From contig JALDRA010000001.1 of assembly GCA_031316235.1 (NCBI GenBank), positions 3,000,001 through 3,032,000 on the forward strand: a stretch of DNA of 32,000 nt, in the 5' to 3' direction. Under the pieces are notes generated by a model, which saw nothing but the letters and a program-made list of their open reading frames with translations, had not been told where the DNA came from and ran no database searches. A program made the translations under genes and the position numbers. The stretch comes from Candidatus Scalindua sp. Lineage in GTDB: Bacteria; Planctomycetota; Brocadiia; Brocadiales; Scalinduaceae. Below are positions 861 to 20,293 of the stretch, piece after piece (position 1 is the first letter of the stretch; each line of letters opens with the position of its first letter).

Positions 861-974
861 TATATACTAAAACCGATTTGGTTTTCGGCTTTACCGGAAA
901 CCAAATCTTGGTGAAGGTATACTCGCTCAATTTTATTTCGGATTTTATCCGAAAACCATTTCGAAATGAGTATA
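861..974 (-). repeat. Copy A (intact) of a ~113-nt structured intergenic repeat (MITE/REP-like)
   Basis: The reverse complement reads TATACTCATTTCGAAATGGTTTTCGGATAAAATCCGAAATAAAATTGAGCGAGTATACCTTCACCAAGATTTGGTTTCCGGTAAAGCCGAAAACCAAATCGGTTTTAGTATA. It aligns end to end with copies C and E. It lies in the divergent trpF/CDF intergenic region. Confidence 0.9.
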
Positions 975-1200
975 CAAAGGGATTTCTGCACCAGGTCAAA
1001 TTATATCAGCATGCAATCTGCTGCGGAGCAGTTATCTGGCTTCTCTGATTACCCTGAACTATCATCAGGAGTTTCAATAAGGAGATGGCGGTTTTTCAAC
1101 AATTGACTGTTGACTGAGTTCCATTGTAGTAAAAAAATACTTGATTTTCACCTGGAGCTGTCCTATTCTTATCTTGTTGTAATCAGATAAGGGGAGATTT

Positions 1201-2391
1201 ATGGCAGGAGAATTCAATAAAAAAATAGCGCAAAGAGTTATAAAAAATTTTGATGATGTAGATAACAAAGCGGTACGAATCAGTTACGGTCTGGTTGCCG
1301 GCTGGTTCGGGATTTATGTTACCTTTGTACTTTTTCTGGTGCAGATTACTCTCGGCCTCTTATCAGGGTCAGTATCTCTTATCGCCAATGCGTTTCATCT
1401 CCTCTCACACCTGGCAAACTCAATCATACTTGTCGTGAGTTTCAAGGTGACGGCGCGTCCTGCTACAGAGAAGAATCCATTTGGTCATGGAAGAATAGAA
1501 CATATCGCACCTCTTGTCATGTCTATATTGCTTTTTGTTTCCGGTGTTCAGATAGTAGAGAAGTCTCTTCACCAGGTTTTTTCCCCGCATGAACTCAACT
1601 ATTATCCTGCACTCCCATGGATTCTTTTCTTGACTATAATAATAAAACACTGGCTCTCACGGTTTGTACGCTTTCTGGGAGAGAGAGTTGATTCCCATGC
1701 TATCCTGGCAAATGCGGCTCATCATAAGATTGAATCTGTCATGACACTTACGGTAACCGTGGGGTTAATTGCTGGTCATTATCTTCATCATCCCGAGCTG
1801 GATGGGTATATCGGTATTTTCGTTTCAGCCTGGTTACTCTACCAGGGGTACTCTCATGGTAGAGAGGCAATTGTTCCTCTGCTCGGACAGGCCCCTGATA
1901 AAGACATTATAAAAAAGATCCGAGAGACGGCAAAATCTGTCGAAGGTATTGAGGATGTTCACGAGATTATTGTGCATGACTATGGATCGATGTATCTTAT
2001 TTCATTCCATGCGGAAATACCCGAACGGTTCGGATCAATTGAAATGCATGAAATAGTTGAACGAAGTGAACACAAACTGAGAAAAACATTCGGAGGAGAA
2101 GCGGTATGTCATGTTGATCCTTTAATGGAAAAAAGCCCTAAAATTCAGGCACTGGAGGAGAGATTTAAAGAGATAGTGAATGCGTTTTCCCAGATTGTAG
2201 GCTACCATGATTTTCGGGTTGTGCATGGAAATGATGATAAAGTTATCCTGGTAGCCGATATAGATTTGAAAGAAGATGTGCTCAGTGAGAGTTATGATCA
2301 GATCTCTGAAGAATTTGAAGCTCAGATAAAAAAAGAGATTCAGGATATTCAATACTGCAGTTTCTATATCACACCAAAATTTTCATACTGA
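1201..2391 (+). CDS. Cation diffusion facilitator (CDF) family metal efflux transporter with a tandem C-terminal cytoplasmic domain
   Basis: The ORF encodes 396 aa with six predicted TM helices and the CDF signatures HLLSHLANS and FGHGRIEHIAPL. A ZT_dimer-like domain (VEGIEDVHEIIVHDYGSMYLISFHAEIP...CHVDP) is followed by a second, similar fold (IVGYHDFRVVHGNDDKVILVADIDL). A GGGGAG Shine-Dalgarno sequence precedes the ATG. Confidence 0.9.
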   Translation: MAGEFNKKIAQRVIKNFDDVDNKAVRISYGLVAGWFGIYVTFVLFLVQITLGLLSGSVSLIANAFHLLSHLANSIILVVSFKVTARPATEKNPFGHGRIEHIAPLVMSILLFVSGVQIVEKSLHQVFSPHELNYYPALPWILFLTIIIKHWLSRFVRFLGERVDSHAILANAAHHKIESVMTLTVTVGLIAGHYLHHPELDGYIGIFVSAWLLYQGYSHGREAIVPLLGQAPDKDIIKKIRETAKSVEGIEDVHEIIVHDYGSMYLISFHAEIPERFGSIEMHEIVERSEHKLRKTFGGEAVCHVDPLMEKSPKIQALEERFKEIVNAFSQIVGYHDFRVVHGNDDKVILVADIDLKEDVLSESYDQISEEFEAQIKKEIQDIQYCSFYITPKFSY

Positions 2392-2443
2392 ACCACGCTA
2401 TTTTTAAGATTGGCGTGAGGAATTTCAAAACCATGATATATAC

Positions 2444-2535
2444 TATACTCATCTCATACTGGATTTCGGATAAAATCCGAGATACAATTGAGCGAGTATA
2501 CCTTCACCAAGATTTGGTTTCCGGTAAAACCGATC
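2444..2535 (+). repeat. Copy B of the structured repeat; 3' module replaced or truncated
   Basis: TATACTCATCTCATACTGGATTTCGGATAAAATCCGAGATACAATTGAGCGAGTATACCTTCACCAAGATTTGGTTTCCGGTAAAACCGA matches the consensus and then diverges (TCATTACGATCGAATGG...). The copy starts 53 nt after the CDF stop codon. Confidence 0.85.
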
Positions 2536-2727
2536 ATTACGATCGAATGGTTTGGCCAGGCGGGTAATCTCTGATTCCTGTACCCGGGGTATGATAGGCT
2601 TTCCCTGACCGTATAAAATACCCTTTTGTTTTCTTCAGCAACAGATGCGGTAACAGGCTACTGAGATGGGCTCACGAAAAACATGGAGCGATATGCTTTT
2701 TAATTTCAGAGATCATTTTCGGAACCG

Positions 2728-3384
2728 TTACCCCTCCCTGATCAGGGGGTGCCAGATATCTTCTGAGAGTTTCTCTCCAGATATGGACTCCAATATCTTG
2801 AATATGTACTCATCTTCATCAAGGTTGCTTGACTCAATTACTTCTTTAAATGCCTGATCTGATAGTGGCATAACGGCGGTTAAATCCAGCTTCCATTGTT
2901 CCTGTTCTTTCACAAATTGATACTTCAATGGAGTCTCCTTTCCGTAATTAATAAAGACCGCTGTTGCAGTATCAGTTGACTCAGTAATTTTACCGATATC
3001 AGAGTTGATGACACTATCCTTGCCTATCCACCCCTTATCAACAGAATGGATAAAGAGTTCCTCTGCTGTCATGTGTGAAAGTACCTCCGCATCCATTCGA
3101 TGGCGAAGAAGGATGACCATCATTTTATCAATTGTGGAAAGATTCCTTACCTCCTCTTCTTCCCCTGTCAGGGCAGACTTCATTATTTTACCGTAATACT
3201 CTATCGTGGAATTACTGACATATTGAACTGCCTTGCTGCCATCCTGATCCAGGATAGAGCTTTTGTAATTGTCAAAAGCACCTCTTACGCCACTAACTGC
3301 TATCGTCTGCTGAGGTTCCTCTGCAGTGCAGTTCGAGATTGAAATGCATAATAATATAATTACGGCAGTTATTCTGTAGTTCAT
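2728..3384 (-). CDS. Hypothetical secreted or lipoprotein-like protein
   Basis: The ORF encodes 218 aa with an N-terminal signal peptide (MNYRITAVIILLCISISNC). The composition is acidic and coding-like. It lies 36 nt downstream of the helicase gene on the same strand. I recognised no family motif. Confidence 0.6.
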   Translation of the reverse strand: MNYRITAVIILLCISISNCTAEEPQQTIAVSGVRGAFDNYKSSILDQDGSKAVQYVSNSTIEYYGKIMKSALTGEEEEVRNLSTIDKMMVILLRHRMDAEVLSHMTAEELFIHSVDKGWIGKDSVINSDIGKITESTDTATAVFINYGKETPLKYQFVKEQEQWKLDLTAVMPLSDQAFKEVIESSNLDEDEYIFKILESISGEKLSEDIWHPLIREG

Positions 3385-3420
3385 TGCTATCTCCTTGAAG
3401 AAATTTCATTTCCAATTGGA

Positions 3421-5016
3421 TCAGTTACGTTTTTTCTGACTCTTCTTCGCCTTTGAAAAGGATGGGCCAACCCCTTGTTTTCTCTTTTTAAAGTAAGATA
3501 ATAACGTTTCTGCCTCATGGAAAGGGAGTGTCACAAAGGAGAACTTATCGAGGATTTGAACGTCGCGTATTTTTTCATTTGAGATACCGCACTTTTCTTT
3601 GATAACATTCACCAGTTTTTTACGTGTGAAACCGTCCTGTTTGCCATGGGTGACGAAGAGACGTGTTTTTCCTTTCATATCAACAACTACATTTTCTATC
3701 TTTGTATAGCTTGTCTCGTCCAGCTCGTCCTGAAAGGCATGTTGTAAAAGGGCTGCCAAAATATTCACTGGCTCATTATTTTCTAAAAGCTCCCTGGACA
3801 TTTCGAGATATCCACTCCTTGGAGAGGATTTTACAATGTCTTCAAGGTCGACCTTAATCCTGTTTTTTTTAATGTTGATGATATCCGAAACCTCGGGCAG
3901 CTTCGCTTTACGAATATCTGTTTTTGCTTCTCTCTTAATAAATTGTAATTTTCTGTATTCTTCAGGAGTGATAAATGTTATGGCATTTCCCCCTTTACCC
4001 GCCCGGCCCGTACGGCCGATTCTGTGAACATATGATTCCGGATCCTGGGGCAGAGAATAGTTGATCACGTGGGTAAGGTTCTGCACGTCTATTCCCCGGG
4101 CAGCAACATCGGTTGCTACAAGGATATTGAGGAGTTGTTTTTTAAATTTTTGTAATATTTTTTCCCGCTGGCTCTGTGACATATCTCCATGCAAGGCATC
4201 GGCATCATATCCTCGCTCCATCAGGTGGTTAGCGACAGTATCAACATTTATCTTGGTTCTGCAGAAGACCAGTCCATAAAACTCCTCTTCAATGTCTATG
4301 ATTCTACAAAGAGCCTCAAATTTATCTGCAGCAGATACCTCAAAATAGATCTGGTCAGTCTTATTTGTGGTGAGCTGACCGGTCGTTACCTTGAGAATAT
4401 CGTATTCGCCCATGTATTTTTTAGCAATCTTGATGATTTCCGGCGGCATCGTGGCAGAAAATAGCATCGTACGCTTGTCAGGACCGGTATTTTCTATTAT
4501 CTCGCTGACATCTTCAAGGAAACCCATGTTCAGCATTTCATCAGCTTCATCCAATACAAGAAACGATATTTTGTCTAACTTCAATGTGCGGCGTTTAAGA
4601 TGGTCAATTATCCTTCCGGGGGTACCAACTACCACATCTATCCCTTTCTTAAGGCTTCTGAGCTGCAGGTCCATCGATTGTCCACCGTAGATGGGAATAA
4701 TGCTCAAATTTTTCTTTCCCTTTAATGAATTAATCTCTTCAGCCACCTGGGTAGCCAATTCTCTCGTTGGAGTGAGAACGAGGGCCTGTACAGACTTTGA
4801 CTTTTCTGTCAAGAGTTCTAGTATGGGAAGACCGAAGGCGGCAGTCTTGCCCGTACCGGTTTGTGCTTGCCCGACAATATCTTTCTTTCCTGACAATATG
4901 GCGGGTATGGTCTTTGCCTGTATCGGTGTTGGTTCTTCAAATCCCTTTTGCTTCAGGACACTTAATACTCTTTTAGATAGACCTAAATCTTCAAATGATT
5001 TTATCACAGATTCCAT
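3421..5016 (-). CDS. deaD: DEAD-box ATP-dependent RNA helicase (DeaD/CsdA/CshA-like) with a DbpA-type C-terminal RNA-binding domain
   Basis: The motifs present are the Q motif (FEEPTPIQ), motif I (AQTGTGKT), PTRELA, DEAD, SAT and HRIGRTGRAG. The C-terminus is DbpA-like (RLFVTHGKQDGFTRKKLVNVI...FVTLPFHEAE) and ends in a basic tail. An AGGAGG Shine-Dalgarno sequence is present. Confidence 0.93.
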   Translation of the reverse strand: MESVIKSFEDLGLSKRVLSVLKQKGFEEPTPIQAKTIPAILSGKKDIVGQAQTGTGKTAAFGLPILELLTEKSKSVQALVLTPTRELATQVAEEINSLKGKKNLSIIPIYGGQSMDLQLRSLKKGIDVVVGTPGRIIDHLKRRTLKLDKISFLVLDEADEMLNMGFLEDVSEIIENTGPDKRTMLFSATMPPEIIKIAKKYMGEYDILKVTTGQLTTNKTDQIYFEVSAADKFEALCRIIDIEEEFYGLVFCRTKINVDTVANHLMERGYDADALHGDMSQSQREKILQKFKKQLLNILVATDVAARGIDVQNLTHVINYSLPQDPESYVHRIGRTGRAGKGGNAITFITPEEYRKLQFIKREAKTDIRKAKLPEVSDIINIKKNRIKVDLEDIVKSSPRSGYLEMSRELLENNEPVNILAALLQHAFQDELDETSYTKIENVVVDMKGKTRLFVTHGKQDGFTRKKLVNVIKEKCGISNEKIRDVQILDKFSFVTLPFHEAETLLSYFKKRKQGVGPSFSKAKKSQKKRN

Positions 5017-5728
5017 TTCGTAATTGTGTTCCTCCTTACTTTCCAGCTATTATCCGTTAAGTCACCTTTTTTCCGGGTGAAAATAATGTAGGGTATCACC
5101 CTGAGAGAGGTAATGTCAAATTAAAAAAAAGATGCGAGAATAGTATTGTAAATAATGTGTATGCAATAGCCTACAGAAAAAACGTAGAATTTTCAATTGG
5201 TTAACTCTCTATCAGGATTTTCTTTTAATATACTGTAGGTTAACCCATTCAACACTCTACCGTATTTTTATTACTGCATTTTGATAAGATATTTATACAT
5301 ATATAGTTATTTTTATTTCCCATACTGGTATACTATTCGCTGATCAGGTATGCTTGGAAACGTGAAAAAAGCTTTGTTATTTTTTTCTGATTCCTTCGGA
5401 GGATTATTGGTAGTACGTTTCTCTCTATAGGTTAAGCGTATCCTGCTTCGCAACTCTCATAAAATTACTGCCACGTCTCCACTTGAATGGCTATTGTGTC
5501 CCCATGCCGGGTATCTGCCCGAATGGATTCATCCGTGCGGGTGTAATATGCACGTAAAACATGATCATGGAATTTCTCCGTACCTGCTCTTAATGACAGA
5601 TTGTTTCACGTGCCTTGCTGTCCTCTTCCATCCAGGAGCGATAATATTTCTTCCCCGCTGGTTTATCCCAAGGAAGCGGTGTGGCAGGTTTTTTTCGTTT
5701 ACAGGCTCATGTAAAGTGTTTTTGTGTT

Positions 5729-5842
5729 TATACTCATCTCATAGTGGTTTTCGGATAAAATCCGAGATAAATTTGAGCGAGTATACCTTCACCAGGATAT
5801 GGTTTCCGGTAAAACCGAAAACCATATCGGTTTTAGTATATA
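5729..5842 (+). repeat. Copy C (intact) of the structured repeat
   Basis: The sequence is TATACTCATCTCATAGTGGTTTTCGGATAAAATCCGAGATAAATTTGAGCGAGTATACCTTCACCAGGATATGGTTTCCGGTAAAACCGAAAACCATATCGGTTTTAGTATATA. It ends 37 nt upstream of the CapD-like start codon. Confidence 0.9.
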
Positions 5843-5878
5843 ACTGAAATAGTGAGGATTCTCTGAAACAGTACAGAA

Positions 5879-7945
5879 ATGATAGAGTTCCGAAAAGGTT
5901 TTTTGATTAAGAACAGGCGTATAGTGGTGACAGCCATTCATATCCTTCAGGTAGTGGTGGCGAATTATCTTGCCTTTCTCCTGAGATTTGAGACACCATT
6001 TTCGACTGTGTATGCAGACCAGCTGTTCCCTTCACTTCCTGTCCTGTTGACAATCCGCCTTGCCCTTTACCTTCAGGCGGGCATGTATAAAGATCTCTGG
6101 CGTTATTCAAGTATCAGCGACATGATCAGTATTATAAGGACGGTTGCAATCGGAAGTGTCGTATTCTTTGTGATAAACAGGTATTTCCTGGGGAGTACCT
6201 ACTATCCTCTCTCGGTGTACGTGCTTGAATGGATGCTGCTTCTGTTTATTTCCTGCGGGACCAGGCTTTTGATCAGGGTCTGTTTCAAGAAGTATCGAAG
6301 CTTTCAATCGTCAGCCAGAAAGATCCTGATTATTGGTACGACAGCTGGTGAAGCAATTGTACGGGATATGAAAAACAACCCGGGATCATCGTATAACCCG
6401 ATCGGGTTCATGGACGAAGACCCGTATAAAAAAGGGCTTGAGATACACGGTGTTCCCATCTTCGGTCAAATAAGCGGCCTGGCTGGCGTGATAAAGAAGC
6501 AGAAGCCTGATGAGATACTGATTTCAATGGTTTCAACGGACAGTAAAACGATTAAGAGTATCTATGACCAAAGTAAGCCCTTTAACATTCCTATCAAGAA
6601 ACTGCCCGGGATAAATGATATCCTTGTGGGCAATATTTCCGTGGAAGCGAGACTTGGTCAGCGTTTAATTGACGCCGGCATGGTGAAGGAAACCCAGATA
6701 CAGGAGGCCCTTGCCTTACAGAAGAATGAGGGGGGGATGCTGGGTTCGATACTGGTTCAAAGCGGGTATATCAAGGAGGAAGAGCTTTTTTCTTATCTTA
6801 CCGAGCAGAGCGGTATTTCCCGTATGAAACCGATATCGCTTGAAGATCTGATCCAGAGAGAGCAGGTGAGGTCTGACATACAATCAGTGCGGGAATTTAT
6901 CCAGGGGAAAACGGTGATGGTAACGGGGGCAGGCGGTTCGATAGGGTCTGAGCTGTGCCGTCAGTTAATTAAGTACAACCCCGCTCACCTGGTGCTCTAT
7001 GAGAGATATGAGAACAGTCTGTTTCATATAGATCATGAATTAAACCGTTTTGAAGAGAACAGGGCAAAGAAGAACTTTACGCCGGTGATAGGAGACATGC
7101 TGGATACCAGGAATCTGGAATATGTCTTTTCCACATACAGGCCTCAGATTATTTTTCATGCGGCGGCACACAAACATGTTCCCCTGTTAGAGCAGAACCC
7201 GCTGGAGGCGGTCAAGAACAATGTCTTCGGTACAAAAAATGTGATAGAAGCGGCGGTGAAGTACAATGCGGAGAGTTTTGTGCTGATCTCATCAGACAAG
7301 GCGGTAAACCCGACAAGTACCATGGGGGCCACGAAACGCATAGCCGAGTTTTTAACGATAGCGATGAATGCCTTTTCAAGTACAAAATTTTCAACCGTAC
7401 GGTTTGGAAATGTGCTGGGGAGTAATGGAAGTGTTATCAAGATCTTCGAGGAGCAGTTGAAGCGGGGAGGGCCATTAACGATTACGCATCCGGAGATAAA
7501 GAGGTTTTTCATGCTGATACCGGAGGCGATCCAGCTGGTTCTTATGGCGGCGGCGCTGAAGAAGGGTGGACAGATTCTGGTGCTTGATATGGGAGAGCAG
7601 ATAAAGATCGTAGAGCTTGCGGAGAATCTGATAAGGCTTTCGGGGTTTGTTCCTCATAAGGAGATTAAGATGGAGTTTACGGGTCTTCGCCCTGGTGAGA
7701 AGTTGTATGAAGAGCTGTTTGACAAATCGGAAAAGGTTATCAGCACGATGCATGAAAAGTTCTGGCTGACGATTCCTGAAACTCCTTCGATAGGGGAATT
7801 TAACAATCAGATTGCGGAACTTGAACGCATTGTTCGGGACAATGCAATAGACGAAGTAGTCTCGGCAATTAAGGACATCGTGCCAAGTTTTAAATGTGAT
7901 TACCACCATGAAACTGATCAGTCATTGTCGCAGAATACTGGATAA
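5879..7945 (+). CDS. Membrane-anchored polysaccharide biosynthesis nucleotide-sugar 4,6-dehydratase (CapD/PglF/WbpM family) carrying an inserted MshEN-like motif
   Basis: The ORF encodes 688 aa. It has four N-terminal TM helices, then a Rossmann-like domain (KILIIGTTAGEAIV...NPIGFMDEDP), then the SDR catalytic domain (VMVTGAGGSIGSEL...ISSDKAVNPTSTMGATKR). The insert at residues 258-310 is described in the findings. Confidence 0.92.
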   Translation: MIEFRKGFLIKNRRIVVTAIHILQVVVANYLAFLLRFETPFSTVYADQLFPSLPVLLTIRLALYLQAGMYKDLWRYSSISDMISIIRTVAIGSVVFFVINRYFLGSTYYPLSVYVLEWMLLLFISCGTRLLIRVCFKKYRSFQSSARKILIIGTTAGEAIVRDMKNNPGSSYNPIGFMDEDPYKKGLEIHGVPIFGQISGLAGVIKKQKPDEILISMVSTDSKTIKSIYDQSKPFNIPIKKLPGINDILVGNISVEARLGQRLIDAGMVKETQIQEALALQKNEGGMLGSILVQSGYIKEEELFSYLTEQSGISRMKPISLEDLIQREQVRSDIQSVREFIQGKTVMVTGAGGSIGSELCRQLIKYNPAHLVLYERYENSLFHIDHELNRFEENRAKKNFTPVIGDMLDTRNLEYVFSTYRPQIIFHAAAHKHVPLLEQNPLEAVKNNVFGTKNVIEAAVKYNAESFVLISSDKAVNPTSTMGATKRIAEFLTIAMNAFSSTKFSTVRFGNVLGSNGSVIKIFEEQLKRGGPLTITHPEIKRFFMLIPEAIQLVLMAAALKKGGQILVLDMGEQIKIVELAENLIRLSGFVPHKEIKMEFTGLRPGEKLYEELFDKSEKVISTMHEKFWLTIPETPSIGEFNNQIAELERIVRDNAIDEVVSAIKDIVPSFKCDYHHETDQSLSQNTG

Positions 7946-8022
7946 TTCAATCACTGAGGCTGATACCCCGGTTTGCAGCAAACTCTGCAATGATACAGCG
8001 GGTGAACGTTTGTATTAAAGGG

Positions 8023-9879: not shown

Positions 9880-10185
9880 GAGCGTAAGACTGTTTGCGCA
9901 AAAGTGAAAGCTGTTCTTCCATAATGGTGCAATACCTTCATTCCATTTAAAACAACTAATGAATAGTAACATTTTGCCGTTGTAACAGCAAAAAGATTTC
10001 TCATAAAATGAACAACCGTCATTGATTACTCTTTACGGAGAATCTTGCAGAAACCGAAGTATTTTATAAAAAACTTGCTTAATTTTTCCATGGATTTATA
10101 ATCATACTCTGTGCTGAGTAGGAGTTGCATATGCCGCTATATTTTAACTTTACATGTCTTTGCTGATGAATCCATTATATTTATT

Positions 10186-10851: not shown

Positions 10852-10955
10852 TCCGGTACGTGAAAGCGGGACATGAGTGCATTTGCGACAATTTTATTAT
10901 ACATTAGTTTGGTATGATGCCATGCATACGCGCTGATATTGGAGAATAACGAAGA

Positions 10956-12323: not shown

Positions 12324-12344
12324 CCCGTTGAGTAGAATATTTTA

Positions 12345-12373
12345 TTGACTTTGCATTTAATATGAGCTAGGAT
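12345..12373 (+). promoter_or_regulatory. Putative sigma70-type promoter of the riboswitch-controlled operon
   Basis: TTGACT (12345-12350), a 17-nt spacer, then TAGGAT (12368-12373). It lies about 15 nt upstream of riboswitch helix P1. Confidence 0.45.
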
Positions 12374-12388
12374 ACTTCAAAATTAAGA

Positions 12389-12493
12389 CTTATCTAGAGT
12401 GGTGGAGGGATCGGCCCTGAGAAACCACAGCAACCGATTTCTGCGTAATGCGGGAATATCGGTGCTAATTCCTACCTGATAGGGAAAGATAAG
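12389..12493 (+). promoter_or_regulatory. SAM-I (S-box) riboswitch aptamer
   Basis: CTTATCTAGAGTGGTGGAGGGATCGGCCCTGAGAAACCACAGCAACCGATTT...ATCGGTGCTAATTCCTACCTGATAGGGAAAGATAAG carries all the conserved S-box blocks: GGUGGAGGGA, GGCCC, GAxAAACC, GCAACC, GGUGCUAAUUCC and the P1 closing strand AGAUAAG. Confidence 0.95.
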
Positions 12494-12500
12494 ATTAGGA

Positions 12501-12543
12501 AAAAAGCCTCTTCTTATCTTTATTGTAAGAAGAGGCTTTTTTT
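12501..12543 (+). terminator. Riboswitch expression-platform intrinsic terminator
   Basis: A 12-bp stem (AGCCTCTTCTTA, 12505-12516, pairing with TAAGAAGAGGCT, 12526-12537) is followed by a T7 run. The CTTATCT in the 5' arm can alternatively pair with the P1 3' strand AGATAAG. This is the classic antiterminator/terminator logic and implies an OFF switch when SAM is bound. Confidence 0.9.
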
Positions 12544-12557
12544 GTATTGGAGGTAAA

Positions 12558-13805
12558 ATGGGTTTTGTCAAAGGACTTAAATGCAGGGAATGTGGAAAAG
12601 ACTATCCGAAGGAACCAATTCATGTTTGCAGCTTCTGTTTTGGTCCCCTGGAGGTTGATTACGAGTACGATGAAATAGGGAAAGTGATAAGTCGGGAGCT
12701 GATTGAGGCTCGAAAACCAACTATGTGGAGGTACAAAGAGCTCTTACCTCTGGATAGTGAACCGACAGTTGGTGCACAAGTTGGCTTTACTCCATTAGTA
12801 AGAGCTGATAATTTAGCGAGAAAACTCGGGGTAGATGAGCTCTATGTGAAAAATGACTCTGTTAACTTTCCCACATTTTCTTTCAAGGACAGAGTAGTTT
12901 CCGCTGCCCTTTCAAAAGCCAAGGAGTTTGGTTTTAAGACTGTGGCTTGTGCAACGACGGGTAATCTGGGAAACTCTGTTGCTGCGCAGGCGGTTCAGGG
13001 AAATCTGGAGAGCTATATCATCATGCCTGCCAATCTGGAGCAGGGAAAGGTGCTCGGCACCTCTATTTACGGGACAAATGTTATCGGCATAAACGGTGGT
13101 AATTATGATGGTGTGAACAGGTTGTGCTCTGAAATTTCAGATAAGTATGGCTGGGCATTTGCAAATATCAATCTCCGCCCGTTTTACGCTGAAGGTTCAA
13201 AGACCTACGGCTATGAGATTGTGGAACAGCTTGGCTGGAAAGCTCCAAAGCACGTGGTAGTGCCTATGGCCGGTGGTTCACTGATCATCAAAATAGGGAA
13301 AGCGATAAAGGAGTTTGAGAAACTAGGTTTGATTAATGGTTCAGATACGAAACTTTATGGTGCACAGGCTTCAGGATCCTCACCGATTTCAACTGCAGTG
13401 AAAAATGGAAGTGAATTTATTAAGCCGGTTAAACCCGATACAATAGCGCACTCTATTGCCATTGGGAATCCTGCGGATGGTTATTATTCCATAAAGGCAA
13501 TTCATAATAGCGGTGGCTGGGCTGAAGATGTTACTGATGATGAGTTAATCGAGGGGATAAAGCTCCTTGCCTCAACAGAAGGGATATTTACCGAGACTGC
13601 GGGTGGTGTAACCGTGGCCGTTACAAAAAAACTTCTGGAACAGGAAAGGATACCAAGGAACGAGTCAATCGTAATTTGTATTACGGGGAACGGCCTTAAA
13701 ACGCAGGAGGCGGTTTTGGGCAGGGTAAAACAACCCAGTATTATCAAACCTACTTTAGAAGATTTTGTCGCATTTATGGAGAAGAAAGAGTGTCTGGCCG
13801 TGTGA
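12558..13805 (+). CDS. Threonine synthase homologue (PLP fold type II) with an N-terminal zinc ribbon; candidate O-phosphohomoserine-dependent homocysteine synthase
   Basis: The ORF encodes 415 aa. The N-terminus is a Cys4 ribbon (CRECGKDY...CSFCFGPLEV). The PLP-lysine motif is TFSFKDR, and the glycine loop is GNLGNS...MAGGS. A GGAGG Shine-Dalgarno sequence is present. The gene lies directly downstream of the SAM riboswitch. Confidence 0.85.
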   Translation: MGFVKGLKCRECGKDYPKEPIHVCSFCFGPLEVDYEYDEIGKVISRELIEARKPTMWRYKELLPLDSEPTVGAQVGFTPLVRADNLARKLGVDELYVKNDSVNFPTFSFKDRVVSAALSKAKEFGFKTVACATTGNLGNSVAAQAVQGNLESYIIMPANLEQGKVLGTSIYGTNVIGINGGNYDGVNRLCSEISDKYGWAFANINLRPFYAEGSKTYGYEIVEQLGWKAPKHVVVPMAGGSLIIKIGKAIKEFEKLGLINGSDTKLYGAQASGSSPISTAVKNGSEFIKPVKPDTIAHSIAIGNPADGYYSIKAIHNSGGWAEDVTDDELIEGIKLLASTEGIFTETAGGVTVAVTKKLLEQERIPRNESIVICITGNGLKTQEAVLGRVKQPSIIKPTLEDFVAFMEKKECLAV

Positions 13806-14042
13806 GGTTTCGTTGGTAATGTATCTCTTGTCTGGGCAAGAGGGTAAACAGCGAATGTACTCCAGGGTAGTAGCAACTGAAATAATAAGAGTTCAAGACC
13901 CGATAATCCGTCTGCGTCGTGCAGGCGGAATCCTTGGGGATATATAGACTATGAACAATCTTTGCTCCTGACGGCAAAGCAAGTGTTTTTCATGTAACTA
14001 TTTCCTGTTTAGAATTTTAATTCAGAAGAAAGAGGTAATACC

Positions 14043-14330
14043 ATGGCCGTAAAAGTAAGAATTCCAACTCCTTTAAGGTCTTTAACCAATGGCTCCGATG
14101 AAGTTTCTGTAGAGGGAAATACCATTAAAGAGGTAGTGGATAATCTTGAATCAAGCTATCGAGGAATTAAAGAAAGAATTTGCGATGAGAACGGTCAAAT
14201 CAGAAAATTCATTAACTTCTATGTCAATGAAGAGGACATCAGGTTCCTGAACAACCAGGAAACACCGGTTAAGGACGGCGACCAGATATCGATAGTACCT
14301 GCCATAGCAGGAGGCACTGCTTTGTGCTGA
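14043..14330 (+). CDS. CysO/MoaD/ThiS-family ubiquitin-like sulfur carrier protein with a C-terminal extension after the GG motif
   Basis: The ORF encodes 95 aa. The layout closely parallels mycobacterial CysO as I remember it: V.IPT.LR, G...V...G.T, NLE..Y.GI.ERI, F.N.YVN.EDIRF, DGD.I.I.PA.AGG. It ends ...VPAIAGG-TALC. An AAGAGG Shine-Dalgarno sequence is present. Confidence 0.85.
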   Translation: MAVKVRIPTPLRSLTNGSDEVSVEGNTIKEVVDNLESSYRGIKERICDENGQIRKFINFYVNEEDIRFLNNQETPVKDGDQISIVPAIAGGTALC

Positions 14331-14670
14331 AAGCTTCAACCCTGTTTGTTGTATCTGCTTATTAGTTTCTGTACATAAAAATTTTTGAAATGTACAGGGA
14401 CGACCATGTCTGGCATGAAAGGGAGCAAAATTTCCAGCATCGAAACCTTAATTCTGCCTGGAAAGCCCGTAAAAACTTCGGGAAAGGTATGAACGGGATT
14501 TCAACGGGTCAATGATGGCGGAGAAAAACAGCATGGAAGGGTGTTTTGCATGATAAGAAATACCTGCAGGAAAGGACTTTGCCGGGTCGGGAATCAATTG
14601 CGGATTTAACAGGTAAGCTGCTACTGTTTTTTTTACATATAGTACTCACTCCCTTAATGCTGAATAGGTT

Positions 14671-15363
14671 TTATTGAAAAAATGTAGTCAGTTCTCTTGG
14701 TACGCATATGTCTGTTACGATTAATTCACCCGTACATTCCAATCCGCCCTCATGAAAAAAACCCGTTTTTGGCGCGACAAAAGTAACAGTCTTTGCAGCT
14801 TTGACGGCAGCGCCTAACTCAGTTCCTTCATCGCAATCCAGCCCCGAGGGTATGTCGACAGATACCACCGGTATATTTGTGGCATTTATTTTCCTGATAA
14901 GTGTTCTGATCGGTTCCCTAACTTCGCCCCGTAAGCCGGTACCAAAGATTGCATCGACGATAACGGTACTCCTTTGAAGTTCTTTTTCTGCACCTTCAAT
15001 ATCATGGAGGTTTCGTAACTCTTTTACCTCGATCTTCATATTCAGTAAAATCATCAGGTTTTTCCCGGCATCACCATCTGATAAAGCATGAGCAATATTG
15101 GTGGTTAGATATACGGAAATGTTTACATTCTTGTTATAAAGATGTCGAGCTGTTACAAATCCATCCCCGCCATTATTACCTTTTCCGCAAAAAATTGTTA
15201 CCTTGGCCATGTTCGGCTCATCCAACATCTTCATAATTTCTTCGGCTACGTTTCTGCCGGCGTTTTCCATTAAGATTATGCCCGGGATACCGTATTCTTC
15301 GATAGCTTTTCGATCAATCTCTCTTATTTCATCCCGTTTCAGAGCCTTTCGCTTTTCAGGCAT
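14671..15363 (-). CDS. nnrE: NAD(P)H-hydrate epimerase (YjeF N-terminal domain only)
   Basis: The motifs present are LMENAGRNVAEEI, the FCGKGNNGGDGFVTARHL loop, and DAIFGTGL...VVSVDIPSGLD. The likely start is the ATG at 15363 (MPEKRK...). The track ORF adds 11 residues, reaching 15396. Confidence 0.88.
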   Translation of the reverse strand: MPEKRKALKRDEIREIDRKAIEEYGIPGIILMENAGRNVAEEIMKMLDEPNMAKVTIFCGKGNNGGDGFVTARHLYNKNVNISVYLTTNIAHALSDGDAGKNLMILLNMKIEVKELRNLHDIEGAEKELQRSTVIVDAIFGTGLRGEVREPIRTLIRKINATNIPVVSVDIPSGLDCDEGTELGAAVKAAKTVTFVAPKTGFFHEGGLECTGELIVTDICVPRELTTFFQ

Positions 15364-15751
15364 TATAAAACCTTTAATTAAATGGTTACAAAACAATCGA
15401 AAAAAGTTTTTTTCAGAGTTCTGGCATAACCTTCTCGTAAAGAAAATGTTTGTTCCTTAGGTCTGATAAGTTAATCATCTCTATTGCGTTACAGTTTAAA
15501 CAGATACTGTCTGGCGTTACCTAAACAGCCTTAGTGCAAACACGGGGGGGGGAGCACTCGTTAGGGGTGTGAAACCTACAATAACAGGTTAGAAAGAGAA
15601 TGACAATGAAAAAGCGTAAATGGCAGTGTCGAAAAGAGTAATTACTCCATTTACGAAACGCTTTACGGAGTTATTTAGTCAATTTTCACGGATAAGACAA
15701 TAAGAAATTGCAGCGCTCTATTCCCAACACGGAGGATGAGGATTCAACTAC

Positions 15752-15783
15752 AACAGGTGAAAGCGTTCACCTGTTTGTTTTCG
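15752..15783 (+). terminator. Orphan rho-independent terminator on the plus strand
   Basis: A 10-bp perfect stem (AACAGGTGAA, loop AGCG, TTCACCTGTT) is followed by TGTTTTCG. No annotated plus-strand gene lies upstream of it for 1.4 kb. Confidence 0.6.
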
Positions 15784-15866
15784 TCTCAGGGTGAAGGAGA
15801 TTCTTCGTTTGCCGGATATGACCATGGGAGGGTACATTCTCAGCCTGCTTCCGGGGTAAAAACAAC

Positions 15867-15895
15867 TTGACGATGAATTTTAATTTATTTAAAAT
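15867..15895 (+). promoter_or_regulatory. Putative sigma70-type promoter facing the zinc-ribbon gene
   Basis: TTGACG (15867-15872), a 17-nt AT-rich spacer, then TAAAAT (15890-15895). This is the same architecture as the queD promoter candidate at 27099. Confidence 0.5.
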
Positions 15896-16037
15896 GGAGA
15901 GTAAGGTTTGCCTGTCTAAATTTTGTAAAATCTGATAGATTGTACAGATACATGGAGGGTTGGTTGAAACCACCTGATTTATAAGGTTTCAGGCAGGTTT
16001 TTACAGAGTAAGAACTTTGGAGCGATGAGTAGTTTCG

Positions 16038-16150
16038 TATATACTGAAACCAGATCCTGGTGAAGGTATCCCCGGACAAAAAGCGCCGAGGACTTTACTC
16101 ACTCAATTTTATCTCGGATTTTATCCAAAATCCAGTATGAGATGAGTATA
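16038..16150 (-). repeat. Copy D of the structured repeat; carries a 27-nt insertion and lacks the core of the 3' hairpin
   Basis: The reverse complement reads TATACTCATCTCATACTGGATTTTGGATAAAATCCGAGATAAAATTGAGTGAGTA[AAGTCCTCGGCGCTTTTTGTCCGGGGA]TACCTTCACCAGGATCTGGTTT-CAGTATATA. The 5' module is identical to copy E. Confidence 0.85.
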
Positions 16151-16232
16151 TCAAATTCATACTAACAGGGTGGTAAGCTTGTAAGTCTTTATATTTTCAG
16201 TACCATTAATTTTCTTTAAGGGACGGTGTAAA

Positions 16233-16550
16233 ATGGGAAAGGTAAGATGCCCGGGAAGCATAAAAACGACGGTACCGGAACCACTTGAGCGTAAGTGCCC
16301 TAAATGTGGCAGCTTAGTTGAGATCTGGAGTGATGAGGAAAAGGCAGACTGCAGGTGCGGTGCAACAGTCTTTAAGGATGTAAAAATGACCTGTGTCGTG
16401 TGGTGTAATGCTGCGGAAGAGTGTGTTGGCGACATAGTAGACGTCAAAAAAATTAAGGAAGAAGCAAAAAAGAAGGCGGCTTCTGAAGGAAATCCAGACT
16501 TCGTAAAACAGGTAACAGAGAAAATTATGAAGGAGAAAAAATCTGATTAA
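16233..16550 (+). CDS. Small cysteine-rich zinc-ribbon protein with a Lys/Glu-rich tail (hypothetical)
   Basis: The ORF encodes 105 aa with 8 Cys, including CPKCG...CRCG and C...WC.....EC. The C-terminal tail is KKIKEEAKKKAASEG...KIMKEKKSD. The composition is coding-like. I recognised no family. Confidence 0.6.
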   Translation: MGKVRCPGSIKTTVPEPLERKCPKCGSLVEIWSDEEKADCRCGATVFKDVKMTCVVWCNAAEECVGDIVDVKKIKEEAKKKAASEGNPDFVKQVTEKIMKEKKSD

Positions 16551-16561
16551 GTTTTTCCTGT

Positions 16562-16674
16562 TATATTCAGCTCATACTGGATTTTGGATAAAATCCGAGA
16601 TAAAATTGAGCGAGTATACCTTCACCAGGATCTGGTTTCCGGTAAAACCGAAAACCAGATCGGTTTTAGTATAT
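16562..16674 (+). repeat. Copy E (intact) of the structured repeat
   Basis: The sequence is TATATTCAGCTCATACTGGATTTTGGATAAAATCCGAGATAAAATTGAGCGAGTATACCTTCACCAGGATCTGGTTTCCGGTAAAACCGAAAACCAGATCGGTTTTAGTATAT. It starts 12 nt after the zinc-ribbon stop codon and is in inverted orientation relative to copy D. Confidence 0.9.
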
Positions 16675-16849
16675 TTGCACCAAAAAGAGATATGAAATCT
16701 GGACATATCATACAAAATTCTGAAAACCAAACAAATTCAACTCGAAAACAAGGATAATAGTGATTACCGACGAGTATCTCCTTTCGGCCGGGACAAAAAT
16801 CTTAATGGCATAACTTGTTGACCTATTGTGTAATTGACGTTATTCATAA

Positions 16850-17300
16850 TCGGTATCCCTCAAAAGAGTAATTCGTAATTTTTTGTCTGACCAGTATACC
16901 CGGATACCTGGAACAGGGATTGGTGAAAACATTTTAATGAACATCCCGTCTCATTTCATCTCTGTTGCATGCCCTCTATTTTTTTTAACGATCTGACGTT
17001 CAGCAGCGGAAAAATCTCATCTCTCATAACTCATTTCCAGATGATGGAGAACGTAATCGCATGGTTAACCATCTATTGCCGCCCGCAGCGGTAAAGTGTT
17101 GGCAGAGTCGAAGGTTTTTAGAGAGTATTATTGGCTGACTGAGGACGAGAAAATCGGTGGGTTGATCAAAAAAGCGGCTGCCGTTCTTCAGAAGGATGGT
17201 TTGTTTCTGAAATGTTCCAGCTATTACCTGTCCGTTGTATAGCCGAAGCCGTTCAGGTACCGGCACGTAGACTCTTCCTGCCTGAGATTACGGGAATTCT
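16850..17300 (+). pseudogene. Possible frameshifted remnant of a class I SAM-dependent methyltransferase
   Basis: Plus-strand fragments lie in different frames. One is ...QYTRIPGTGIGENILMNIP (motif I-like GxGxG). Another is VFREYYWLTEDEKIGGLIKKAAAVLQKDGLFLKCSSYY, which follows the typical post-motif-III pattern 'l...e....l.ka...Lk.gG.f'. No intact ORF exists. The track ORF 17024..17266 (-) is antisense to these fragments. Confidence 0.35.
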
Positions 17301-17645
17301 GATTGTTGGAGGTGGATAACTAAGGATTGCAAAAGGTATCACCTCTTCGAAATGGTTGAGAGGGCAGCATGATTTACAGACCGGAATTCACCTGTTTGTT
17401 ATGGAAGGATAACAAAAAATGTTATGCTGAAATAACAAACAGGAAAACAAAAACCATACCTGTTTTTCAAACGTCATATCTGATATATAGTTAGGTATAC
17501 AAAACTGTAAAAAAAAGTTCGGCATTATGTTTGCTTTTTTTGATTTCGGAAGTGCTCTGTCACTTTTAATCATATCAACTTGCGTTGTCTGGCACAGAAG
17601 TGTAATTGTGATACATTCAATGACCGTGTTCCGGAGTAATAGGTA

Positions 17646-18011
17646 ATGGATAAAACGATAATGATTGTTGAAGATGAACTGCACTTCCAGGATCTCTATA
17701 AAGCGATATTGGAAAATACAGATTATGAGATCATCTGTGCGTATGATGGGAATGAGGCATTGGAGAAATTGGATGAAAAGAGACCTGATTTGATTATTCT
17801 TGATATACTCTTAAATATGATAACGGGTGATACACTCTTTTTCTATTTAAAGAGTATGCCTGGATATGCTGATATACCGATTATAATTGCTACAAGCGCC
17901 TCAAAGAGTACCTTTAGAAATTTGATTGAGATGGATCCAGATCTCGTATTTCTTGAAAAAACTCTGGTTTGGGAAAATCTGATTGAAGAGATTCGGAACA
18001 AGATTGGATAG
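17646..18011 (+). CDS. Stand-alone response regulator receiver (CheY-like)
   Basis: The ORF encodes 121 aa with IMIVEDE, the phospho-acceptor context PDLIILDILL, IIIATS, and FLEKT in the conserved Lys position. There is no output domain. A GGAG Shine-Dalgarno sequence is present. Confidence 0.88.
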   Translation: MDKTIMIVEDELHFQDLYKAILENTDYEIICAYDGNEALEKLDEKRPDLIILDILLNMITGDTLFFYLKSMPGYADIPIIIATSASKSTFRNLIEMDPDLVFLEKTLVWENLIEEIRNKIG

Positions 18012-18150
18012 AAGGTTTTCTTAAAGAATCAGCGTTGTTAAGACAGTAAAGAGAGAGAACCAGGGAGTGAGTACGCTGTCCAAAATCTTGCTGCAATTAT
18101 GATGAGTACGCGACAAGGTGAAGCTCTTCATGCGGTAATTCCTGATTGGG

Positions 18151-18180
18151 AAAACCTGGGGCAATTGATCCCCAGGTTTT
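18151..18180 (+). terminator. Intrinsic terminator hairpin (bidirectional type)
   Basis: AAAACCTGGGG, loop CAATTGAT, CCCCAGGTTTT forms a perfect 11-bp stem with flanking A and T tracts, followed by GTGGTTT. It lies between the receiver gene and the HAMP-PAS gene. Confidence 0.65.
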
Positions 18181-18282
18181 GTGGTTTGGAAACTAGGTAG
18201 AGTAACTTGTTGGATTTAGATTAATTTTTAGTGAAAAATGTTATCCCTTTATCCTCTCTTAAACAGATGTATCAGATAATAA

Positions 18283-19233
18283 ATGGTTATCAAAAGCAAA
18301 CTGTTATTCTGGTTGTTGCTTCCTAATATAATAATAACAATTTCTGTGTCGGCAGCTTGGTTTTTTACTAACCAGAAAACGATAAGGCAAAACATCAATA
18401 ACCAGATTGCAATATCTGATGTTCAGTTACGCGAAGAAGCGCCTGCATCCCTGGAGGGAGAAAAGAGTTCTGCTGATAATTTTCAATCTGAAGCAAATAT
18501 TTCTGGATTCTTTGCTTCACCTGTTTACCTGCGAAACTTCTTGATATTGATGGGAATTATAGGGGGTACTTCTGCTGTAGTGATGATCAATATTTCTCAA
18601 AGGATTAGCAACTCTCTGAAAATAATTACAGAAGGGACAAAAAAAATAGCAAGTGGAGACTTTGGGTATCCAATTTCAACAGATACATTTGAGAGTGAAG
18701 TCAGGGTGCTTGGTGAATCGTTTAATTTGATGATGAACAAGCTGAGAGAGGCAGAAGATAAAAACAGAGAGCTTTTTTTGCAGGTGAAGAGAGGGAGAGA
18801 CGAGTGGCAGGAGACCTTTGATTCAATAAAGGATGTTATAACAATTATTGACAAGGATTTCAGGATAATCAGGGCAAATAAGGCATTTTTTAAAGAGTAT
18901 AATATTGATAAAACACGGTTAAAAGAAAAAAAATGTTTTGAAGTTTTTTATGGAGTTGATGCACCGTCGGAGAATTGTCCCCTCATGCAATGTTTTGAAA
19001 ACCTGAAAACTGTGTACGAAGAGATGGTCGATACAGAGATGGATGAGATATTTCTTGTTACGGTCTTTCCTCTTTTTGATGAAGAAGGGGAAATTTATGG
19101 TGCTGTGCATCAAAAAAAGGATATAACTTTTCAAAAAAAACTGCTTAAAGAACTTATGAAGAAGGCAAATAAATTAGATGAGGCAAATAGGGAACTGGAA
19201 AGGTTGACCCGTATTGTTTCTGAGCTGAGATAG
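18283..19233 (+). CDS. Membrane HAMP-PAS sensor protein ending exactly where a histidine-kinase H-box should start (probable truncated kinase)
   Basis: The ORF encodes 316 aa with two TM segments and a HAMP domain (ITEGTKKIASGDFGYPIS...VLGESFNLMMNKL). The PAS domain is WQETFDSIKDVITIIDKDFRIIRANKAF...CFEVFYG...CPLMQC. A coiled coil ends the protein (...LERLTRIVSELR-stop). There is no DHp or HATPase domain. Confidence 0.8.
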   Translation: MVIKSKLLFWLLLPNIIITISVSAAWFFTNQKTIRQNINNQIAISDVQLREEAPASLEGEKSSADNFQSEANISGFFASPVYLRNFLILMGIIGGTSAVVMINISQRISNSLKIITEGTKKIASGDFGYPISTDTFESEVRVLGESFNLMMNKLREAEDKNRELFLQVKRGRDEWQETFDSIKDVITIIDKDFRIIRANKAFFKEYNIDKTRLKEKKCFEVFYGVDAPSENCPLMQCFENLKTVYEEMVDTEMDEIFLVTVFPLFDEEGEIYGAVHQKKDITFQKKLLKELMKKANKLDEANRELERLTRIVSELR

Positions 19234-19429
19234 TCATCTGGTTTATTCTTCATAAAGTTTTAAAGTAAAAAATCTTCGGTCTCTCCTCAGAAAAAAAAGG
19301 GCAGCATCAAGAGAAGATGCTTAGTCTGACCTGTTCCTGAATAAAACACCTTCCTGCCTCCCTAACTCCTAGAAGATACAGCTCTGTATCATTCCAGAAT
19401 CAGTATGGATAGTATAGAAGGATAAGAAA

Positions 19430-19976
19430 ATGATAAAAGTCCTGCCGGCACAAATACCTGACATAGCGTTAAGGGCAATGCTGCGTTCCAGCGATAGGAT
19501 GATAGTTTTTATCTTTTACGCAGTTATTCTATCCAATGTAATCTCCGCATTTTCACAAGAGCTTTCAGTATCACCACAAGATAAGCCAGGATCAGCGGTT
19601 GATGAAGAGATCAGGTGGTTGCAGGCGGAAGCATTTGATTTGGATGTTATCCTGGCTTCCAGAAAGTCAGAAAAGCTTTTTAAAACGGCAGCTGCTATTT
19701 ACGTAATTACCCAGGAAGATATACGTAACTCATCAGCCACAAATATTCCTGAGTTACTGAGGATGGTACCTGGAATTAATGTTGCACGAATAGATGCTAA
19801 TAAATGGGGAGTAACTTCACGTGGGTTTAACAACAGGTTTGCAAACAAGCTTCTTGTACAAATAGACGGGCGGATTGTTTATACACTCCTTGAATTTAGT
19901 GGAACAAATGCCGACCGTACACAGTCAACAGAGGTTTGAACGGAGTCTGTACGCTAAGATAACATGGCAATTCTAA
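19430..19976 (+). pseudogene. TonB-dependent receptor remnant: plug domain joined out of frame to the last ~15 codons of the barrel
   Basis: The track ORF 19430..19939 encodes a signal peptide plus a plug (AAIYVITQEDIRNSSATNIPELLRMVPGINVARIDANKWGVTSRGFNNRFANKLLVQIDGRIVYT) and then turns to nonsense. The +1 frame reads ...QQRFERSLYAKITWQF-stop (stop at 19974-19976). That is the canonical outer-membrane-protein C-terminal motif ending in an aromatic residue. About 500 barrel residues are missing. Confidence 0.75.
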
Positions 19977-20124
19977 AAACAACAACCGTAATGTCATGTC
20001 CCGTCAAGCTACGGCTATGACAGGGTGTTTTATCTATGGCAGATTTACCAAGAGAAAGCGATGGTTTCATTCAAGCCTGCTTGGCATTGGCAAGGCTCCG
20101 ATTCAGGGGATAAATATGTTACTA

Positions 20125-20238
20125 TGTATACGGAAACCGATTTGGTCTTAGATTTTTCTAAAAACCAAAGACTGGTTAATGGTATATTTGCTCCGTTTTT
20201 TCCGTATTTTATCCGAAAATCATTATGAGATGAGTATA
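20125..20238 (-). repeat. Copy F of the structured repeat; strongly diverged
   Basis: The reverse complement reads TATACTCATCTCATAATGATTTTCGGATAAAATACGGAAAAAACGGAGCAAATATACCATTAACCAGTCTTTGGTTTTTAGAAAAATCTAAGACCAAATCGGTTTCCGTATACA. The termini and the TTTGGT/ACCAAA pairing are retained, but the interior has drifted. Confidence 0.7.
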
Positions 20239-20293
20239 CGTGCCAGAATTGTTCAGTGCTTTTCATTGGTTGTACCAGAAACGATTAAATAGA

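Follow-up and report, generated by a model that had tools for sequence, protein, structure and literature searches.

Short Non-coding Repeats and the Scalindua Element

The Correia elements of Neisseria (CREE/NEMIS) are non-coding, high-copy and mostly intergenic repeats of about 100–155 bp that carry terminal inverted repeats of about 26 bp. They start with TATA, duplicate a TA target and fall into size classes defined by internal segments, and to our knowledge no cognate transposase has been identified for them. RUP of Streptococcus pneumoniae and Nezha of cyanobacteria are miniature inverted-repeat transposable elements (MITEs) of about 100 nt that derive from IS630, with inverted ends and a TA duplication, and they are thought to be moved in trans by a transposase of the IS630 family. 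The subject of this study is a repeat of about 113 nt found in a 32,000-nt stretch of the genome of Candidatus Scalindua sp. (contig JALDRA010000001.1, positions 3,000,001 to 3,032,000; hereafter the window), where a first-pass annotation made from the sequence alone had listed six copies of a "highly structured MITE/REP-like" element. These repeats are most probably a non-autonomous, TA-targeting DNA transposon, that is, a MITE, which is specific to the Scalinduaceae and is moved in trans.

Judged by behavior, the closest of the described systems are the Correia elements and the IS630-derived RUP and Nezha. The Correia elements have in common with the Scalindua element a TA duplication, repeats of about 26 bp that start with TATA, a division into size classes and the lack of a known transposase. 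The two differ in host phylum and in sequence, the Correia repeat (TATAGCGGATTAAC...) being unrelated, and the Scalindua element is built from two foldback units in tandem with hairpin modules that are rich in GC. An IHF site and promoter and RNase III functions, which have been reported for Correia elements, are not claimed here for the Scalindua element. With RUP and Nezha the likeness lies in the mechanism, which is the same as the one proposed below; in contrast to the Scalindua element, for which none was found in the sequence searched, they have a known parent insertion sequence with matching ends, and there is no sequence similarity. The modular or mosaic build, with conserved end modules and variable internal ones, recalls BOX of S. 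pneumoniae, BIMEs and ERIC: one module occurs zero, one or two times in tandem, much as boxB repeats do in BOX, and the long variants arise from insertions at fixed internal sites, as in ERIC. However, BOX, BIMEs and ERIC are unrelated in sequence and are without a demonstrated TA duplication with these ends, and BIMEs consist of REP palindromes associated with RAYT genes.

Six Copies in the Window

The core motif of the element (TTTYGGATAAAATCCGARATA, a 21-mer for which up to three mismatches were allowed) matches the window six times, against 0.02 matches expected from shuffled sequence. A repeat search of the window recovers the copies as families D1–D4 and I1–I11, and an nhmmer profile built from three complete copies retrieves all six. 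In the six-way alignment, a common block of about 113 nt stands between unrelated flanks, and the complete copies are 88–91% identical to one another. The copies are given below in TA-to-TA coordinates, which take in the flanking TA at either end.

863-974, minus strand: copy c1, complete, 112 nt including the flanking TA on each side; profile match 862-974, model positions 1-113, E 2e-36
2444-2534, plus strand: copy c2, model positions 1-91, covering unit 1 and some of unit 2 and lacking the 3' end
5729-5840, plus strand: copy c3, complete; profile match 5729-5841, model positions 1-113
16040-16150, minus strand: copy c4, module-X variant; profile match 16033-16150, model positions 1-92
16562-16673, plus strand: copy c5, complete; profile match 16562-16674, model positions 1-113
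20127-20238, minus strand: copy c6, diverged and complete; model positions 1-112, E 4.5e-15

The first-pass annotation had placed all six within 2 nt of these positions. It had also described them as strictly intergenic and as sharing no reading frame, and both descriptions hold: the open reading frames (ORFs) that overlap copies, at 746-991 and 5494-5847, are mechanical calls, and the length classes described below differ by modules that are not multiples of three. The fourth copy, for which "indels" had been reported, does differ from the others, but the differences are not random. It belongs to a module-X subfamily, in which unit 1 is followed by a 27-nt GC-rich insert (AAGTCCTCGGCGCTTTTTGTCCGGGGA, at 16068-16095), and it has lost the hairpin-2 apex through a 28-nt deletion between direct repeats of GGTTT; the same combination of module X and deletion occurs in locus L021.

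A Dispersed Family in the Scalinduaceae

Sequence outside the window was retrieved as loci and contigs labeled with L-numbers (L001, L057 and so on), and these are the loci examined in what follows. A scan with the 21-mer, covering one genome per species, returned at least 118 stretches of 8 kb, nearly all of them from four Scalinduaceae assemblies: Candidatus Scalindua sp. SCAELEC01, RBC_AMX3, OFTM1 and the long-read Scalinduaceae metagenome-assembled genome (MAG) CBDCUS01. One further unit was found in a MAG of an unclassified member of the Planctomycetota. A few matches in Bacteroidetes, Arcobacteraceae, Mesorhizobium and Omnitrophota were set aside as the bare 21-mer with no element around it. 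Across the matched loci, nhmmer gave 193 hits and 112 distinct full-length copies with unrelated flanks. Pairing of the ends gave at least 131 complete elements in 0.94 Mb from the four other assemblies, of which RBC_AMX3 accounts for 64 or more and SCAELEC01 for 52 or more. In addition, a scan of metagenomes for the terminal repeat, with the next base chosen to exclude known MITE interiors, yielded 16 contigs, all of which carry a diverged subfamily of the MITE. The dispersed, genome-wide family that had been predicted from the window is thus borne out.

These numbers bear on the simplest alternative, namely that the six copies represent a local segmental duplication or a chance match of low-complexity sequence. 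It is true that the first 20 kb of the window hold all six; against this, hundreds of copies with unrelated flanks are present in at least five assemblies and in metagenomes, megablast comparisons of the loci with the window show similarity that ends precisely at the boundaries of the element, and the chance expectation is the 0.02 matches given above. This alternative is left with hardly any probability, and local duplication is excluded by the dispersed copies with unrelated flanks.

Activity appears to be recent, as indicated by a mean column identity of 94% in the 113/114-nt class (50 copies). Both flanks are common to just two pairs of copies among the loci examined, both pairs within SCAELEC01, and no cross-genome pair with both flanks in common passed the blastn screen. 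One apparently orthologous copy was seen by eye in SCAELEC01 (L020 4497-4609) and RBC_AMX3 (L091 6826-6939), where its flanks are almost identical and lexA-like and Y-family polymerase-like genes adjoin it. Its two versions differ by a linker block (ACCTTC-ACC vs. AACTGCAACC), which suggests conversion between copies. Around a CDF transporter gene in two other Scalindua lineages, no copy was found within 7-13 kb, and the density of copies therefore differs between lineages.

No orientation bias was detected relative to neighboring genes. Among copies with two neighboring ORFs, those between co-directional genes have the same orientation as the genes in 29 cases and the opposite orientation in 20 (p=0.25), and a further 25 copies lie between divergent and 17 between convergent genes.

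Ends and Target Site

The element has the 5' end TATACTCATCTCATAATGGTTTTCGG and the 3' end CCGAAAACCAAATCGGTTTTAGTATA, outside of which the bases are variable, and 124 of the 130 scorable copies both begin and end with TA. As intergenic DNA is too diverged between Scalindua species to be aligned, the empty sites used for comparison are uninterrupted paralogous copies of host repeats and not true pre-insertion alleles. One such comparison is between the filled site in L057 (CCTTG-TA-[TACTC...AGTA]-TA-TCTGG) and the uninterrupted sequence in L109 (CCTTG-TA-TCCGG), which amounts to a 2-bp duplication of TA. In L076, as compared with L111, the insertion lies at a TA within ATAT, and the lengths in L043 and L091 agree with a 2-bp duplication; in L001, two head-to-head copies have one TA in common. 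Duplications of 3 bp and of 4 bp, the latter suggested by L010, were considered and rejected because they do not fit L057. The core of the element accordingly runs from TACTCATCTC to GGTTTTAGTA (TACTC to AGTA) and is flanked by the duplicated TA. In L010 and L007, the same TA of the same repeat of about 150 nt was used independently, with the element in opposite relative orientations.

Taken together, the nested copies support reading the TA flanks as a 2-bp target-site duplication, one of two possibilities that the first-pass annotation had raised. On this basis, the empty site of c3 should read ...GTGTTTTTGTGTT-TA-TAACTGAAATAG..., with a single TA.

The interrupted repeat of about 150 nt belongs to a third abundant family, which has inverted ends (AGTGTTTGAACGAAAACT...) and is seen, for example, at L114 2293-2454, L001 318-466 and L064 1046-1204. 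It gave 57 blast hits in the loci examined and none in the window, and the main element has entered it on at least two occasions, each time using the same TA.

Tandem Foldback Units and Related Families

The termini had been described from the window as inverted hexamers, TATACT...AGTATA. The ends are indeed inverted, but the real repeat is about 26 nt long and bipartite: the outer 26-nt arms form an imperfect terminal inverted repeat of TATACT, 10 nt and TGGTTTTCGG, with 20 of 26 positions matching and the consensus TATACTCATCnCAAAATGGTTTTYGG. The 113-nt element as a whole is a tandem of two foldback units of about 57 nt that overlap at TATA, each consisting of an arm, a short loop and an inverted arm. 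Unit 1 spans 57 nt from TATACTC to GAGTATA, and unit 2 runs from TATACCTTCACC to TTTTAGTATA. This reading is supported by shorter forms, including a solo, TA-flanked 57-nt unit 1 in L011, a 59-nt minimal foldback composed of the unit-1 5' arm and the unit-2 3' arm in L131, and a 29-nt end-to-end remnant in L066.

The metagenome subfamily is informative about the inner arms. Its 5' arm matches the unit-1 5' arm at 24 of 26 positions, and its unit-1 arms match each other at 21 of 26, while in the type found in the window the inner arm has drifted to 18 of 26. Such drift is to be expected if the dimer now uses its outer arms alone.

A second MITE family, F2, is about 182 nt long (about 182-210 nt) and is represented, for example, at L032 2838-3019, L100 5418-5599, L040 4314-4494 and L072 2409-2618. 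Its terminal inverted repeat (TATACTCATCGCAAATTGGTTTTCGG vs. TATACTCATCGCGAATTGATTTTTGG) matches at 23 of 26 positions, and its 5' arm matches the unit-1 5' arm of the main element at 23 of 26. The member in L072 has an insert resembling module X. The window contains a remnant of this family:

574-635, strand not assigned: F2 remnant, 62 nt, 84% identity

Scalindua genomes appear to hold several MITE families.

Modular Length Variants

Members of the main family fall into length classes of 111-114, 131-144, 164-173, about 195 and about 224 nt, and the extra length is contributed by hairpin modules rich in GC, each of which has a fixed place:

Module X, AAGTCCTCGGCGCCTTTTGTCCGGGGA: between GAGTA and TACC, present zero, one or two times, in tandem if two
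Module Y, 30-85 nt, CCCGCCCGGCC...GGACGGG: in the apical loop of hairpin 2
Module Z, CCCGCCTGAACGACATGTCGGGCAGG: in the linker

Internal variation takes three routes: palindromic GC-rich modules are inserted at set positions, one module is duplicated in tandem, and stretches between short direct repeats are deleted. In the loci examined, modules X and Z were found only inside the family. Sequence resembling module Y (CCCGCCCGGCC...CTGGCGGGGACG) and followed by GGTGGGAATTTTGGAAAAGTTAG was seen outside the element at L102 422-454, L043 7086-7120, L078 918-966 and L047 ~6975-7040, and may be another repeat family. The hairpin-2 apex is missing in several metagenome contigs (L122, L125, L132 and L134), and because such forms recur it seems to be dispensable. 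In L079 (5384-7264), a copy is interrupted within module X by an insert that has GTGCG at its start and codes for a reverse transcriptase (Pfam RVT_1, E 6e-29), probably a group II intron residing in a GC-rich hairpin.

Folding of the Element

That the element is highly structured, as first reported, is evident from predicted folds: both strands of complete copies fold into two long hairpins, with z scores of -5.5 to -7.5 relative to shuffled sequences. When the two-hairpin structure is laid over the 50 copies of the 113/114-nt class, 94.6% of cells pair, although with 94% column identity there is little variation by which conservation of the structure could be judged. For the most part, the structured appearance follows from the foldback units themselves, each an inverted repeat with a short loop, and it need not mean that an RNA has been selected.

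The strength of these folds is nonetheless the first argument for a different explanation, in which the repeat is a functional structured RNA or a cis-regulatory hairpin (a small RNA, a terminator or an mRNA-stabilizing element) kept by selection. Several copies lie just upstream or downstream of genes, GGTTTT comes after hairpin 2, and the GC-rich inserts in the loop and between the helices are like RNA expansion segments; in addition, pair 72/98 is T-A in c1, A-T in c3 and C-G in c5. Yet the two strands fold equally well, and copies show no preferred orientation toward neighboring genes. Simple promoter and terminator scans found no consistent site on the copies, the counts being those expected from shuffles. 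The hairpin-2 apex is unpaired in about half of the copies, truncated and deleted copies are common, and no Rfam family matches: at the gathering threshold, only a SAM riboswitch passes in the whole window, and with E values of up to 10 allowed, one copy scored at best 17.6 bits against a threshold of 76. That the element transposes is shown by the target duplication and by the copies inserted into other repeats. A selected RNA or hairpin is thus very unlikely to account for the family.

Mode of Movement and the Missing Transposase

The transposon reading draws on features that together define a MITE, namely a non-coding sequence of 111-224 nt, inverted ends, a duplication of fixed length and dispersed copies. 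Duplication of a TA target on insertion is, further, what is expected of MITEs derived from IS630/Tc1-mariner elements. In the mechanism proposed here, a transposase supplied in trans would bind the two outer 26-nt arms; the candidate enzyme would most likely be a DDE transposase of the TA-duplicating IS630/Tc1-mariner type. The element would be excised and inserted at a TA by cut-and-paste, by way of a 2-nt staggered cut, and gap repair would then duplicate the TA. The inner arms of the dimer would no longer serve as ends and would have decayed. The transposase family is proposed because of the TA duplication alone, IS630/Tc1-mariner being the known prokaryotic family that performs cut-and-paste with a 2-nt stagger at TA.

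Several observations weigh against this account. First, an autonomous element with the same ends, which would be expected as a relative of a MITE, was found neither in the window nor in the 0.94 Mb of Scalinduaceae loci, the 16 metagenome contigs or viral contigs. Second, a TA duplication cannot be distinguished by sequence from insertion next to a TA with a TA carried on one end of the element, and in L010 and L007 the duplicated stretch could be TA or up to 4 bp (TACA). Third, the stems show a small excess of compensatory changes: both sides are altered in 10 stem cells, whereas column shuffles gave 3.3, and the observed number was not attained in any of 500 shuffles. Pair 3/55, for example, is C-G in L007 and L010, and this matching internal change from T-A to C-G in the L010 copy must be called a coincidence under the simple model. 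Finally, the loops of both hairpins carry TAAAA in direct rather than inverted orientation, as strand-specific recognition would predict, and orientation relative to local GC skew shows a weak, borderline bias (48 to 30, p=0.054). As for the matched arm changes, they are weak evidence at most for a single-strand or RNA role, because they are expected if one protein binds both arms or if sub-lineages derive from different master copies.

Some of these features would be at home in an element that moves as single-stranded DNA by means of a Y1/HUH transposase (TnpA of IS200/IS605, or a REP-associated RAYT) that recognizes two subterminal hairpins, after the fashion of REP/REPIN or palindrome-associated elements. 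Each end has a stable hairpin with a similar stem (TTTCGG/CCGAAA) around the direct TAAAA loop, some stem changes are compensatory and the orientation bias, if weak, is in keeping with such a route. To these can be added L071 (5154-6261), in which a gene for a 325-aa IS200-like Y1 transposase (Pfam Y1_Tnp, E 5e-14) is preceded at a distance of 90 nt by a copy that breaks off after 41 nt. That gene is the sole one of its kind in the loci examined, however, and no element is present in the 84 nt between its stop codon and the end of the contig; a gene with a truncated copy on one side only, together with the TA duplication, is not the arrangement of REP/REPIN and RAYT, in which short palindromes that make no target duplication flank a single-copy RAYT gene. 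Nor does the family resemble palindrome-associated elements of the IS200/IS605 type, which have neither inverted ends nor a duplication and insert strand-specifically 3' of an asymmetric target of 4-5 nt, given its inverted ends, its symmetric TA flanks, the use of the same TA in both orientations and a skew bias of only 48 to 30. The nested copies fit a 2-bp duplication, which the Y1/HUH class does not make, the ends are inverted repeats common to the classic inverted-repeat MITE F2, and the repeated deletion of the hairpin-2 apex suggests that this hairpin is dispensable. Movement by a Y1/HUH enzyme is accordingly quite unlikely. Of the label "MITE/REP-like" that the element had first been given, the MITE half therefore stands, and the REP half is not supported, on account of the target duplication and the inverted ends.

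A more unusual possibility is that the element is not a passive MITE of the DDE type at all and that the hairpins themselves govern how it spreads and grows: a structure-specific or single-strand enzyme would read the direct TAAAA-loop hairpins, and a palindrome-generating process would add modules X and Z. This idea is prompted by X and Z, which in the loci examined are confined to the element, where they have set positions between the two units and in some cases form tandems, and it bears a loose likeness to the GC clusters of yeast mitochondria. If true, it would mean a type of mobile element without a known transposase class and with self-expanding hairpins; it is regarded as unlikely.

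For the preferred reading, a TA-duplicating MITE moved in trans, the transposase was sought in several ways. No transposase had been seen in the window by the first-pass annotation, and none was found there now; the full-length, transposase-coding element that it had proposed to look for was not found in the Scalinduaceae loci either. That search reached about 1 Mb of Scalinduaceae DNA and not whole genomes, so that absence is not established. Among the loci examined, 5' and 3' ends paired at distances of up to 4-5 kb delimit neighboring MITEs only, and ORFs between inverted repeats are host genes bracketed by MITEs. Clustering of ORFs of at least 150 aa for multi-copy transposases returned only an IS1380-like fragment, and a tblastn search with a mariner transposase query returned nothing. 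With regard to known relatives, the first impression that the element matches no named family is upheld beyond Rfam: the consensus had no blastn match in 72,556 plasmids, the terminal-repeat pattern had none in viral contigs, and no description of the element was found in the literature searched on repeats, MITEs and inverted repeats of Scalindua and anammox bacteria. The family seems to be undescribed, though of an ordinary kind.

A Metal-Transporter Gene Between Two Copies

The inverted copies c1 (minus strand) and c2 (plus strand) bracket a gene for a CDF metal transporter at 1201-2391, within the interval 975-2443. In RBC_AMX3 (L047 6335-7999), trpF-like, 218-aa-protein and DEAD-box helicase genes follow in the same order as in the window, with a gap of 216 nt between the trpF-like gene and the gene for the 218-aa protein, as compared with 2.2 kb in the window. 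In two other Scalindua lineages (L137-L140), it is a START-domain gene and citrate synthase that come after the CDF gene. Only one CDF protein among the search results comes from the window's own contig. From these gene orders, the CDF gene appears to have moved into a MITE-bracketed, non-ancestral position.

The arrangement is similar to mobilization units bounded by MITEs, such as integron mobilization units, in that inverted copies bracket a gene. It differs from them in that the outer end of c2 is missing and no duplication can be read around the composite; movement as a unit is therefore suggested only.

Consequences for Anammox Genomes

Anammox bacteria of the genus Scalindua account for a large share of nitrogen loss in marine oxygen-minimum zones, and their genomes are known almost only from metagenome assemblies. 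Short-read contigs of the window's own organism terminate inside c1, c2 and c3, and many of the 16 metagenome contigs likewise terminate within a copy. The short-read run SRR28338161 also derives from the window's organism. A dense family of repeats of about 110-220 nt explains the fragmentation of short-read Scalindua assemblies. With a model of the family, spurious ORFs and "structured RNA" calls in intergenic DNA could be flagged, and the copies could be used as presence/absence markers for strain tracking and are candidate sites of rearrangement. More generally, the family adds one more TA-duplicating MITE without an identified transposase, like Correia, in which the tandem of foldback units and the modular design are unusually clear. 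This tandem and the nested GC-rich modules are details worth noting but do not make a new category, and the current understanding of MITEs is unchanged.

Setting of the Copies and Other Features of the Window

Copy c1 lies in the divergent intergenic gap between the trpF-like gene (minus strand, start at 517) and the CDF transporter gene (plus strand, from 1201); a further ORF at 260-700 is a mechanical call that overlaps the trpF-like gene on the opposite strand. Copy c2 begins 53 nt past the CDF stop codon, with convergent genes on either side, and c3 ends 38 nt upstream of the ATG (5879) of a gene for a 688-aa polysaccharide-biosynthesis protein. Copies c4 and c5 are head-to-head, with 411 nt of unique sequence between them. 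Copy c6 is located directly upstream of a substrate-binding-protein gene, whose mechanical ORF start is at 20240 and whose likely ATG is about 50 nt further on.

The region that houses c4 and c5 (15400-17640) comprises 2.2 kb without a convincing gene. Between the two copies there are two ORFs without a Pfam match, at 16157-16447 on the minus strand and 16233-16550 on the plus strand, and outside the copies the region gave no blastn or tblastx match to the other loci examined. Upstream of c6, a 169-aa ORF at 19430-19939 on the plus strand contains only the plug domain of a TonB-dependent receptor and ends about 190 nt before the copy; it is possibly a truncated receptor gene. The riboswitch detected with Rfam is a SAM-I riboswitch (RF00162, 78.9 bits) at 12387-12495 on the plus strand, upstream of a gene for a pyridoxal phosphate (PLP)-dependent enzyme at 12558-13805, which is followed by a ThiS-family gene at 14043-14330.

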